A stretch of 64,000 nt of DNA from positions 19,061-83,060 of the forward strand of contig JAFWKK010000014.1 of NCBI GenBank assembly GCA_017514235.1, given 5' to 3'. The stretch is from Kiritimatiellia bacterium (GTDB taxonomy: Bacteria > Verrucomicrobiota > Kiritimatiellia > RFP12 > UBA1067). The first letter of the stretch is position 1; every line of letters begins with the position of its first letter. The notes beneath the pieces were generated by a model, which saw nothing but the letters and a program-made list of their open reading frames with translations, did not search any database and had not been told where the DNA came from. The translations under genes and the position numbers were made by a program. This document shows positions 1,719 to 6,122 of this stretch, piece after piece.

Positions 1719-3107
1719 TCAGCTCCGGAAGTCGAGCAGATGCCCGATCAGGGAGCGAACGCCGCGATAGTAGAAGCCGAAGTCGAAAAGCGTGCGCGTG
1801 GAGGTGAGGCGATGCCAGAGCGCGGCAGGCTGAAGGAAGCCCCGGTAGACCTGCTGGATGGCGCACTTGATCTCGGCCTCGGTAGCCAGCGGCGTCTTCG
1901 TGATCGCCCTGCGCATGTCGTACTCGTCCCAGTCCTTAGTCACCAGCCCGTCGGCAGCCTCCAACTCTCGGAAGAGCGGCGTGCCCGGATACGGTATCGT
2001 AAGCGTACACTGGAGCGTGGACGCCCACCCACTTGCGAGCAGGCGGCGGGCGAGCGCAACGGTATTGGCGATCTCCTTCGGCCCTTCCCACGCATGGCCG
2101 AACATGAAGGTAAGGTGCACGTCGAGGCCGGCCTTGTGCGCCCACTCGCAGCCCTGCACGACATCTTCCACCTTCAATGCCTTGCAGAAGCGGTCGAGCG
2201 TGGCCTGGTTGGCCGACTCAACGCCGAACAGCACGAACTGGAAGCCCGCCCTGCGCATGAGCCTGTAGTCGTCGAACGTGAGGCGTCCGAAGCGCATGTT
2301 GCAGTCGATGCGGACCTTTTTGGGAAGACCGCGGCGAATCATCTCGTCGCAGAACGTCGTCAGCCATTCGCCGACAGGGAACGTGCCCGAGTCGTCCATC
2401 ACTTCCTTAACGCCGTACTTAGTGACAAGCATCTCTATCTCGTCCACGACATCGATCGGGTCGCGCGTGCGGTACTTCGGGTAGAGGGTCGTCCAGCTGC
2501 AGAACGTGCACTTGCCGTGCCAGCAGTCGCGGCCGGACATCACGTATGTCCCCGGCGTCCGCCTGAAGTTGCCGTTCTTCTTGGCGTACAGCTCCCAGTG
2601 AACCAGGTCGCGGTCGATCCACGGAGCGTCCTTCAGGCTGTCGCGCAACGCGAACGGGTAGACGCCGCCATGGCAGTCGCCGGCGAAGAAATCGCATAGG
2701 CCATAGTCCCAGTCGCCTCCAGGGATGACCGCCCAGACGCCCGGCTTCCCGATCGATTCCTGCGGCAGTGCGGTCACGTGGTCGCCGACCATAATGACCT
2801 TGTAGCCGTGTGCGGCGATCCACTTCCAATGACGCTTCACGACAGGCGTCTTGGTCTCGACGACCACGTAGTCGGGCTGAAAATCGGCGAGACGGCGGTC
2901 GAACTCCTCAGACGTCAGCTGGGCGGCAATGCCGTCCAGGAAAAGCACATCATGACCGGCCTTCTTCAGCATCGTCGCCGCCGTGGCAGGCACGACCGGG
3001 AAGATGTAGGTGGGCCGCGAGAACCACTGGAACTGGCGGTTCTGCGTGAGGAGGGCAACGCCCTTCTCGCACTCCAGGGGCGGATAGGCTATCGCGACCC
3101 GTGCCAC
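1719..3107 (-). CDS. cobalamin (B12)-binding-domain radical SAM protein (class B, HpnJ-like architecture; substrate unknown)
   Basis: The N-terminal region resembles a B12-binding Rossmann domain (VPATAATMLKKAGHDVLFLDG). A Cys-rich radical-SAM cluster region follows (SGRDCWHGKCTFCSW). GTG start. Confidence 0.8.
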   Translation of the reverse strand: MARVAIAYPPLECEKGVALLTQNRQFQWFSRPTYIFPVVPATAATMLKKAGHDVLFLDGIAAQLTSEEFDRRLADFQPDYVVVETKTPVVKRHWKWIAAHGYKVIMVGDHVTALPQESIGKPGVWAVIPGGDWDYGLCDFFAGDCHGGVYPFALRDSLKDAPWIDRDLVHWELYAKKNGNFRRTPGTYVMSGRDCWHGKCTFCSWTTLYPKYRTRDPIDVVDEIEMLVTKYGVKEVMDDSGTFPVGEWLTTFCDEMIRRGLPKKVRIDCNMRFGRLTFDDYRLMRRAGFQFVLFGVESANQATLDRFCKALKVEDVVQGCEWAHKAGLDVHLTFMFGHAWEGPKEIANTVALARRLLASGWASTLQCTLTIPYPGTPLFRELEAADGLVTKDWDEYDMRRAITKTPLATEAEIKCAIQQVYRGFLQPAALWHRLTSTRTLFDFGFYYRGVRSLIGHLLDFRS

Positions 3108-3121
3108 GGCTCAGGCCAGCA

Positions 3122-4138
3122 TCACCACTTGTAGCCAAGGCCGACGATATAGCGGAGGTCGCTCTTCTTGCGGTCGGCGCTCGGCTTGGAGTCGTAGTCC
3201 CACTCGATCTTGGCCAGGAGGTCGAAGTCCATTATGATCTTCGTGGAGAGACCGGCGTCCGTCTTGACGAAGAGCTTCTCCCAGTCGTCCACTTCCGGCA
3301 GTATCTCGAAGTTGTGGAAGAGCTCGACGTTCTCGTAGAACTTCGGGCTGTAGCCGAAATGATGGGCGTAGCGCAACGCGGCGAAGCCGCCGTCCTTGCC
3401 GGAGCCGTCCGCATAACGCTCCTTGATCCAGTTTATGCCGAACTCCTGGTTGAAGTTCCACTTGCCGGTCGACTCGAAGACACGGTTCTCCAGCCACTGG
3501 TAGCCCAAGCCCACGCCGAGACGGTAGCGCCAGTCAAGGTCCTGTATCTCGTCGCGGTCGAAGCGGCCGTTCTCGTAATGGTAGACCTTCTCCCACCAGA
3601 AGTGGTCGTGCTTGAGCTCGGCCTCCCAGCGGTCGCTAGTCTTCTCTGCGCTCGAGCTGGACTTGCCCGAATCCGCATAGTAGTAGCCGAAGTCAGCGGT
3701 CAGGCGATCCTTCTCCCACCGGCGCACGGCGTTAGCTATGACGGCCGCCGAATTCTCGTAGGTGTTGCCGCGGGCCGCGTTGTAGGCGATGTTGATGCTG
3801 CCGTGCCAAGTCTCGAGCACCGGGTCCACGGCTTTGACCTTCGCCATGTCGAGCTTGGCGTCGCCCGTCCACAACGCACCGTCGCGCACGTCCAGCACAC
3901 AGTCGGCCTTCGTCCCGTCCAAGTACTGCACGACGTGGTTCTTCGCCTTGTCGATCGACTTGATCTTCTCGAGCTTGATCTCGATGTCGCCCAGGTCGTC
4001 GGACTTGAACTTCATTACGTCGCCGCTAATCTCCCCCGTCTCACCGGTCAGGACCGATCCGGACGAAAGCACTATCTTGTCGGCGAACGCCGCCCCTGCC
4101 GCGCATGCGGCCAAAACTGTCAGCGAGAGTCTAGTCAT
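3122..4138 (-). CDS. DUF481 (YdiY-like) outer-membrane beta-barrel protein
   Basis: Signal peptide MTRLSLTVLAACAAGAAFA. N-terminal DKIVL..G..L.G repeats, a GNT motif and alternating beta-strand pattern are present. The protein ends in aromatic ...GLGYKW. I trimmed the start to ATG 4138, which overlaps the secretin stop by 8 nt; the ORF-track start at 4243 adds a basic non-protein-like extension. Confidence 0.7.
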   Translation of the reverse strand: MTRLSLTVLAACAAGAAFADKIVLSSGSVLTGETGEISGDVMKFKSDDLGDIEIKLEKIKSIDKAKNHVVQYLDGTKADCVLDVRDGALWTGDAKLDMAKVKAVDPVLETWHGSINIAYNAARGNTYENSAAVIANAVRRWEKDRLTADFGYYYADSGKSSSSAEKTSDRWEAELKHDHFWWEKVYHYENGRFDRDEIQDLDWRYRLGVGLGYQWLENRVFESTGKWNFNQEFGINWIKERYADGSGKDGGFAALRYAHHFGYSPKFYENVELFHNFEILPEVDDWEKLFVKTDAGLSTKIIMDFDLLAKIEWDYDSKPSADRKKSDLRYIVGLGYKW

Positions 4139-5618: not shown

Positions 5619-5622
5619 TATA
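5617..5622 (-). promoter_or_regulatory. extended -10 (TGGTATAAT) 7 nt upstream of ATG 5609; predicts a leaderless secretin mRNA
   Basis: The minus strand reads TGGTATAATGTCCGACATG. Confidence 0.5.
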
Positions 5623-5627
5623 CCATA

Positions 5628-6122
5628 TCATCCCTTGAAAATGAAGAACTTGCGGACAAAAAAGTTGACGAGAAACGAAACCGCGACCTCAATGGCCACG
5701 GCAATCGTAGTCATAAGCCCGCACCAGCGTATCAGAGCCGAGGAAAGGCCGAGCGCGACAAGCGTCGCGACGGTCGCAGTCCCGAAGAACATCGCAAGCT
5801 CCACGTGCCAGCGGAACTTGCCTGGACGGAACACGAACGCGCGGTTCATCAGCCAGCAGAAGACGTTCGCCACGACGAACCCTATTCCAGTTGCGACGGC
5901 AAAGCGAAACGCACGCACCGCGTCGCTGACCTCCGCCGCAGGCAGCCCCAGCAGCCGTACGGCCACGTCGTCCGGCGCAAGGCACCCTAGGAACGTCGAC
6001 GCAAGGACATAGAACACCGCGGTCTGCACCAGCGTCGAAAGAACGCCTATGACGCCGTACTTCACGAACTGCCAGAACGGTCCAGACTCGTGTGACAGCA
6101 CCCGCCTGACCGCCGCGACCAT
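5628..6122 (-). CDS. GtrA-family membrane protein
   Basis: Small four-TM protein with an N-terminus typical of GtrA-like proteins (FVKYGVIGVLSTLVQTAVFYVL). Confidence 0.75.
   Translation of the reverse strand: MVAAVRRVLSHESGPFWQFVKYGVIGVLSTLVQTAVFYVLASTFLGCLAPDDVAVRLLGLPAAEVSDAVRAFRFAVATGIGFVVANVFCWLMNRAFVFRPGKFRWHVELAMFFGTATVATLVALGLSSALIRWCGLMTTIAVAIEVAVSFLVNFFVRKFFIFKG

Follow-up and report, generated by a model that had tools for sequence, protein, structure and literature searches.

Secretins are regarded as the outer-membrane end of an envelope-spanning machine, to which they are docked via their N0 domain. Work on the PilQ-PilP and GspD-GspC pairs indicates that N0 docks secretins to inner-membrane alignment proteins of the PilP/GspC type. 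Here, we describe an orphan secretin gene that lies directly upstream of genes for a DUF481/YdiY-family outer-membrane protein and a B12-type radical S-adenosylmethionine (SAM) enzyme (rSAM), on the minus strand of a 64,000-nucleotide stretch of DNA (the window). The window comprises positions 19061 to 83060 of contig C2 (107 kb in all) of a ruminant-gut Kiritimatiellae metagenome-assembled genome (MAG) of 3.96 Mb, 92% complete; MAGs from goat, cattle, sheep, yak, and the human gut are its closest relatives. In PMC12475490, secretins are reported to be needed for exopolymer slime secretion in cyanobacteria and Myxococcus, Myxococcus GspD is described as a slime nozzle, and a third Myxococcus secretin, Om031, is linked to osmoregulation. 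The secretin in the window resembles these paralogues in being an extra secretin of one genome whose role would be neither pilus extrusion nor classical protein secretion. It differs from them in that, in the portion of PMC12475490 that we read, loss of N0 is not reported (N0 of cyanobacterial PilQ is only unresolved in the density), nor is a DUF481/rSAM operon mentioned.

We consider it probable, if only modestly so, that this locus is a genus-specific operon fusion that gives co-expression of three envelope-related genes and not an obligate secretin-porin machine. An earlier note on this DNA had proposed a dedicated two-component outer-membrane module, and it is the pairing itself that fails outside the window's genus, which we denote g1. 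Our whole-genome set comprises 151 genomes from 27 genera of the family, in which secretins that, like this one, lack N0 were counted at ≥55% identity; such secretins occur in six genera of the family sample. The pairing is tight within g1, where the secretin gene adjoins the DUF481 gene in 35 of the 41 secretin-bearing genomes, and is absent from all of the ~48 genomes of the five sister genera g3, g103, g90, g95, and g2, nearly all of which hold both genes. The features on which the argument turns, in their minus-strand order as established from open reading frames (ORFs) and Pfam matches, are as follows.

6160-7635, minus strand: SecY, a context gene (Pfam SecY; probable start near 7557; own TGGTATAAT motif at 7598-7606)
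5628-6122, minus strand: GtrA-family small membrane protein (Pfam GtrA_DPMS_TM), 9 nt upstream of the secretin gene
5617-5625, minus strand: TGGTATAAT, an extended -10-like promoter motif, directly after the GtrA stop
4131-5618, minus strand: orphan secretin, 495 aa (Pfam Secretin, 94.2 bits with a cut-off of 27.5, and Secretin_N)
4131-4138, minus strand: ATGACTAG, the 8-nt overlap of secretin stop and DUF481 start, read from the sequence
3122-4138, minus strand: DUF481/YdiY-family outer-membrane protein, 338 aa (Pfam DUF481, 136.4 bits)
1719-3107, minus strand: B12-type, class B-like radical SAM enzyme, 462 aa (Pfam Radical_SAM, 59.2 bits with a cut-off of 29.5)
420-1616, minus strand: MetK, a context gene (Pfam; own TGGTATAAT motif at 1691-1699)

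The gene content, the overlap, the rSAM gap, and the gtrA-secY and metK flanks that the earlier note had described are all borne out by the ORFs, Pfam, and the sequence itself. The junction reads ...GGA AAT GAC TAG, with the ATG of DUF481 at 4138-4136 and an AAGGAG-like Shine-Dalgarno sequence directly upstream of that start, and 14 nt separate the DUF481 stop from the GTG start of the rSAM gene. On the opposite strand, a 597-aa antisense ORF (3789-5582, plus strand) faces the secretin gene, and we regard it as an artifact typical of high-GC coding DNA.

We compared the neighborhoods of 80 species-representative secretin loci, of which 74 were informative for linkage to DUF481 (genes in fetched loci were called with a GC3-guided caller and tblastn). 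DUF481 lies directly downstream of the secretin in 48 of the 74, and 45 of these 48 also carry the rSAM gene. A junction of the translational-coupling type, as had been claimed, is conserved in these 48 species loci: 24 junctions overlap and 21 have gaps of 0 to 30 nt, with a median gap of 0, and the DUF481-rSAM gap in linked loci has a median of 24 nt. The secretin-DUF481-rSAM block stays together while its flanks differ, the upstream neighbor being SecY, a glycosyltransferase, or a second secretin and the downstream neighbor MetK, CstA, or others. SecY stands upstream of the secretin in only a subset of relatives, and GtrA does so in 29 to 32 of the 48 linked loci, about two thirds. MetK follows rSAM in the nearest relative, L051, and in neither L012 nor the other 79 species loci. 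The earlier note had left it open whether the adjacency of rSAM and metK, the source of SAM, was coincidental or belonged to a modification pathway; because it is kept in L051 only and metK has a promoter motif of its own, we take it as coincidental and reject the idea that MetK supplies SAM to the enzyme. In the secretin tree, linkage is concentrated in a single clade of 62 rows, with 49 linked and 9 unlinked; two basal clades are wholly unlinked, and at least six state changes are needed. Fusion in one lineage would be the simplest history.

The DUF481 and rSAM genes form an older, stable unit, and the constant neighbor of DUF481 is rSAM, not the secretin. All 10 of the loci that we fetched from six further genera have DUF481 and then rSAM, co-directional and 30 to 50 nt apart; with g1, g2, and g3 counted, the two genes adjoin in eight genera in all. 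The pair is present in g101, which has no secretin match at the search threshold, and more distant genera have DUF481 without an adjoining rSAM gene. A TGGTATAAT-like motif stands 35 to 134 nt upstream of the DUF481 match start in 8 of 11 unlinked DUF481-rSAM loci, and in the sister genera the motif upstream of unlinked DUF481 is of the same TGGTATAAT type; at the secretin-DUF481 junction, no promoter motif was found in any of 45 linked loci.

The explanation that comes nearest to challenging an operon fusion, and one that we consider unlikely, is that the secretin has a dedicated partner in the DUF481 barrel, which would act via its N-terminal periplasmic domain (as an assembly factor, a pilotin-like anchor, or a co-channel), and that coupling sets a 1:1 stoichiometry; a facultative interaction of the two proteins is likewise conceivable, if unlikely. 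Such a partnership would fit the very tight junctions in 45 of the 48 linked loci (24 of them overlapping), the lack of an internal promoter motif at the junction, the retention of the block in 35 of 41 g1 genomes while its flanks change, and the fact that nearly all genomes with an N0-less secretin hold DUF481 somewhere; the strongly conserved C-terminal tail of the secretin could bind a partner. It is opposed by the five genera in which both genes are held and none of ~48 genomes has them adjacent, and by the family-wide distribution of DUF481: full-length copies, which share the N-terminal domain, are present in 138 of 151 genomes and represent 26 of 27 genera, mostly without an N0-less secretin. 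Each gene is found without the other: four or more g1 genomes carry a mid-contig DUF481 gene and are devoid of such a secretin, in L069/G273 the secretin is followed directly by rSAM with the intervening DUF481 lost, and G225 has the secretin and no DUF481. The linkage has been broken independently at least five times, and the constant neighbor of DUF481, as we noted, is rSAM. Nor did we find a second, independent association of the two genes. The one candidate, a DUF481-secretin adjacency beside a Tad cluster, was judged a coincidence because it is seen in a single genus, g4 (G105, G175).

The DUF481 protein matches its Pfam family (PF04338) along all 210 positions (1-210) of the model. A signal peptide ending in ..AFA ahead of DK is followed by an N-terminal beta-rich domain at residues ~20-104 and a predicted 12-strand barrel at 112-337 (mean predicted local distance difference test score [pLDDT] of the AlphaFold2 model, 85.5). 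It resembles the DUF481/YdiY family (TCDB 1.B.75) in its strong Pfam match and in a modeled barrel with the 12 strands tabulated for that family, and it departs from typical members in its extra N-terminal beta domain of ~85 residues, a hallmark of this Kiritimatiellae family that most DUF481 proteins elsewhere in the class lack. Foldseek placed the model nearest to NanC, KdgM, PcoB, and OmpG-type folds, which are only generic 12- to 14-strand barrels, and returned no match for the N-terminal domain; a PDB sequence search found no solved relative. The literature that we searched treats the DUF481 family as uncharacterized, with no member of known function. The ratio of nonsynonymous to synonymous divergence (dN/dS) of the gene is 0.05.

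The orphan secretin is a PilQ paralogue that lost N0. Its architecture consists of a signal peptide, a short linker, one ring domain of the N1/N3 type (residues ~44-113), a secretin domain (217-411), and a conserved C-terminal tail, with neither an N0 domain nor an STN match. It aligns to Pseudomonas aeruginosa PilQ (PDB 6VE2) only from residue 373, in N1, whereas the canonical PilQ of the same genome, encoded on contig C70, aligns from residue 300, in N0, and has a weak STN match. PilQ is its best match in both the PDB and NCBIfam, and every equivalog score falls below its cut-off: 127 bits for PilQ (TIGR02515; cut-off 284.35), 120 bits for GspD (TIGR02517; cut-off 351), which moreover has an N0-N3 module where the orphan has a single N-domain, and 106.8 bits for MshL (TIGR02519; cut-off 250.2). 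In our maximum-likelihood trees, the N0-less clade nests within the Kiritimatiellae PilQ clade with 99 to 100% support, on a long stem (branch length, 0.95). It is this nesting, together with an alignment that begins at N1, that identifies the protein as a PilQ paralogue minus N0. Sequence comparison across the clade gives a signal peptide, then a variable low-complexity linker (~15 residues in the orphan and, in relatives, as many as ~130, rich in Ala/Glu/Lys), then the single ring domain. Across 39 sequences, over 100 alignment columns do not vary, the conserved C-terminal tail included, and dN/dS against the nearest relative is 0.14. The AlphaFold2 monomer model is poor (pLDDT, 52) and usable for the N-domain only. 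Like type IVa PilQ, in whose clade it nests, the orphan has a secretin domain with an adjacent N1/N3-type ring domain; unlike type IVa PilQ, it has neither N0 nor AMIN domains, lacks pilMNOP neighbors, scores below the family cut-off, and persists where the cognate PilM is absent. Our literature search found no description of the N0-less clade and nothing on Kiritimatiellae secretins.

Several observations bear on the history of the secretin gene. Relative to L051, its synonymous divergence (dS, 0.43) is far above that of DUF481 (0.15) and rSAM (0.30), a difference that hints at recombination inside the gene; its N-terminal linker, too, is of variable length. Locus L009 (1286-4734) has two tandem N0-less secretins (445 and 510 aa, 47 to 51% identical) with GtrA between them, ahead of DUF481-rSAM. 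Secretin-matching stretches with an in-frame stop occur at L084:7001-8332 and L124:5153-6529; these may be pseudogenes or assembly errors.

The orphan status that the earlier note had assigned to the gene holds well beyond the window: our profile search found no T2SSE or T2SSF gene on the 107-kb contig, and no secretion or pilus gene lies near the N0-less secretin in any of the 80 species-level loci. In basal lineages, the secretin sits inside a gatC-gatA-secretin-gatB arrangement, and this gatA-gatB insertion was seen in L016 (G095:C36) and in about 9 to 14 of loci L092-L126. The six secretin genes of the source genome lie on C9, C3, C70, C43, C10, and C2. Those on C9 and C3, of ~1,080 aa each, adjoin PilM-like genes; that on C10 is at a contig edge; and the canonical PilQ on C70 (663 aa) closes a four-gene run that is like PilM/N/O/P in order and size and whose counterparts in other Kiritimatiellae match PilM_2, PilN, and T2SSM_b. 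A type III secretion cluster occupies C43 (7899-18500), where genes encode a 643-aa secretin, an FHIPEP (SctV-like) protein (756 bits), an FHA-like protein, and a lipoprotein of the YscJ/FliF family. Six T2SSE-family ATPase genes lie on C33, C34, C45, C52 (two), and C68, those on C34 and C68 being orphans, as is a platform gene on C39.

That the orphan is no more than a pilQ or gspD out of place, serving as the usual secretin of a complete pilus or type II secretion system (T2SS) machine encoded elsewhere, is in our judgment quite unlikely. The scattering of secretion genes in this assembly lends the idea some appeal, since every T2SSE-family ATPase gene lies on a contig that has none of the six secretin genes. 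The earlier note had envisaged a complete system elsewhere that lacks its own secretin, and the genome goes part of the way toward this: a T2SSE-T2SSF operon on C33 and an RcpC/CpaB-CpaF-TadB cluster on C45 are both secretin-less on their own contigs. A role in trans for the orphan at one of these platforms is conceivable. A displaced gene of the ordinary kind is opposed by the canonical N0-bearing PilQ already present in the PilM/N/O/P-like operon on C70, by the orphan's own lack of N0, by its position in a separate, long-stemmed paralogue clade (branch length, 0.95), and by equivalog cut-offs that lie far above its scores (127 versus 284 bits for PilQ; 120 versus 351 bits for GspD). The orphan also persists in genomes without a C70-type PilM, as in G085 and G095 of a sister genus, which hold the N0-less secretin and no homologue of that PilM.

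The Tad-like cluster deserves separate mention. It occupies C45:15917-19063 (RcpC/CpaB, an FHA-CpaF ATPase, and TadB), and no RcpA-type secretin is found on the 32.7-kb contig; a tblastn search of the source assembly with a relative's Tad secretin gave no match. In the relative G105, an RcpA-like secretin lies within the Tad operon, and across six genomes the N0-less and RcpA-like secretins showed no pattern of correlation.

HpnI and HpnJ are the glycosyltransferase and the rSAM enzyme of hopanoid head-group modification, and they provide the closest analogy for the third gene of the block. Like HpnJ and BchE, the rSAM enzyme has a radical SAM core, ahead of which lies a putative B12-like N-terminal domain, and it aligns nearly full length to HpnJ; its match to the B12-binding domain PF02310 is sub-threshold (27.9 bits; cut-off 32.1). 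Scores against BchE (TIGR02026; 122 bits, cut-off 481) and HpnJ (TIGR03471; 96 bits, cut-off 578), both over nearly the full length, lie far below the equivalog cut-offs, and the cluster motif is a non-canonical CX4CX2C (C195-C200-C203; CWHGKCTFC) in place of CX3CX2C, a feature present in all 76 orthologues examined. A PDB sequence search gave one weak match, and dN/dS is 0.05. We found the enzyme in 34 of 151 class genomes, among them all those of the window's order, and often without DUF481. Outside the family, the gene upstream of it often encodes a tandem-GT2 glycosyltransferase (~630 aa) that ends in membrane helices. Like HpnJ with HpnI, it is genomically tied to a GT2 glycosyltransferase; unlike in the HpnJ/BchE enzymes, the partner here is a tandem-GT2 protein with such helices. 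Among 151 class genomes, 29 have both rSAM and this GT2, 5 have rSAM only, none has GT2 only, and 117 have neither; the two genes adjoin in 10 genomes and lie ≤2.1 kb apart on the same contig in two more. The relevant loci are the following.

L153, L158, and L161-L163: tandem-GT2/rSAM loci
C35, 4811-6622: tandem-GT2 gene of the source genome

Given this co-occurrence across the class, the rSAM enzyme most likely belongs to a glycoconjugate or glycolipid pathway, by analogy with HpnI-HpnJ, and it is not likely to belong to the function of the secretin.

These data invite a further explanation, which we think improbable, in which the N0-less secretin is an autonomous outer-membrane conduit for a glycoconjugate or polysaccharide that the tandem-GT2 and rSAM enzymes make or modify and GtrA flips, with DUF481 as an accessory barrel. 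GtrA does lie directly upstream of the secretin in about two thirds of linked loci, the rSAM-GT2 co-occurrence is strict (29 genomes with both, none with GT2 alone; adjacent in 10), and NanC and KdgM, porins for acidic oligosaccharides, are the closest matches to the DUF481 barrel in fold and size; secretin-dependent slime secretion is reported in PMC12475490. The distribution of the genes argues the other way. The rSAM and GT2 genes extend across the order and class, and many genomes that carry them have no N0-less secretin or no DUF481; GT2 is unlinked in this family (it lies on C35 in the source genome), the gatCAB setting of the secretin in basal lineages includes no glycan genes, what follows the triad varies, and no polymerase, exporter, or OPX gene is found in the block. 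A locus for a ribosomally synthesized and post-translationally modified peptide is rejected because the intergenic gaps, overlapping or of 14 nt, leave no space for a precursor ORF and no transporter is present, and decay into pseudogenes is rejected because dN/dS is 0.05 to 0.14 across the secretin, DUF481, and rSAM genes.

The TGGTATAAT motif is strongly enriched in the window, with seven copies where 0.05 are expected, all of them upstream of gene starts.

1691-1699, minus strand: TGGTATAAT copy, upstream of MetK
5617-5625, minus strand: TGGTATAAT copy, upstream of the secretin
7598-7606, minus strand: TGGTATAAT copy, upstream of SecY
33120-33128, plus strand: TGGTATAAT copy
34000-34008, plus strand: TGGTATAAT copy
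41160-41168, minus strand: TGGTATAAT copy
61863-61871, minus strand: TGGTATAAT copy

In three of the seven cases, the secretin among them, an ATG lies 7 to 8 nt downstream of the motif, a spacing that suggests frequent leaderless mRNAs in the source organism. At the secretin, the motif overlaps the annotated ATG at 5618, and a further ATG at 5609 sits 7 nt downstream of it; the likely true start is therefore ATG 5609 (M4), on a leaderless message. The promoter that the earlier note assigned to the secretin is seen in this genome as a motif, at 5617-5625, and is not general, the motif being missing in most relatives with GtrA upstream.

Operon fusion would fit these observations as follows. An N0-less paralogue clade arose from the type IV pilus secretin PilQ in gut Kiritimatiellae of one family, and in the window's genus the secretin gene, often with GtrA, would have been placed before the older DUF481-rSAM bicistron, which would thereby have lost its own promoter. 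Transcription would begin from the TGGTATAAT motif at 5617-5625, probably as a leaderless mRNA from ATG 5609, or else read through from secY-gtrA; ribosomes ending the secretin would re-initiate at the overlapping DUF481 start, and rSAM would be translated from the same mRNA as the secretin and DUF481. The coupling-type form of the junctions would then follow from compaction or, at the most, from selection for co-production. Secretin and barrel would each be exported by the Sec route and enter the outer membrane independently, and the cytoplasmic rSAM enzyme would work with the tandem-GT2 membrane glycosyltransferase encoded on C35. The secretin would most likely form a free-standing gated pore used in trans by one of the secretin-less T2SS or Tad-type platforms of the genome, and this last step is the one of this scheme that we hold least firmly.

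Several points weigh against this reading. G085_C28, which belongs to another genus and is flagged for odd composition, nests together with its neighbors inside the linked clade, and a gain in g1 alone is less sure for that reason; the tree may instead reflect an earlier gain with several losses, or an artifact. The fusion is well kept within the genus (35 of 41 genomes) and its junctions are tight, and selection for co-production predicts the same. Operon fusions often mark shared function, and an envelope-glycan role could be common to GtrA, the GT2-linked rSAM, and the secretin. We know of no route by which a secretin without N0 docks to an inner-membrane platform. The genomes that we compared are mostly MAGs, 60 to 100% complete, in which single absences are soft evidence.

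The chief interest of this locus lies in the orphan secretin clade itself. A secretin without N0 is under purifying selection in ~90 of 151 genomes of the family, from gut and rumen, and is never encoded with any machine. Because N0 was lost, the gene conserved, and no machine retained alongside, the clade can serve to test whether a secretin functions by itself or docks by other means. Striking translational coupling can reflect a lineage-specific operon fusion and need not be evidence of a complex. The CX4CX2C rSAM family, tied as it is to tandem-GT2, is a lead on an envelope-glycoconjugate pathway. We give only slight credence to the proposal that the N0-less secretin is an autonomous conduit, free of any inner-membrane docking partner, that with the co-translated DUF481 barrel exports or exposes a glycoconjugate produced by GtrA, tandem-GT2, and rSAM; if true, it would mean that a secretin serves gut Kiritimatiellae as the route for a polymer other than protein.

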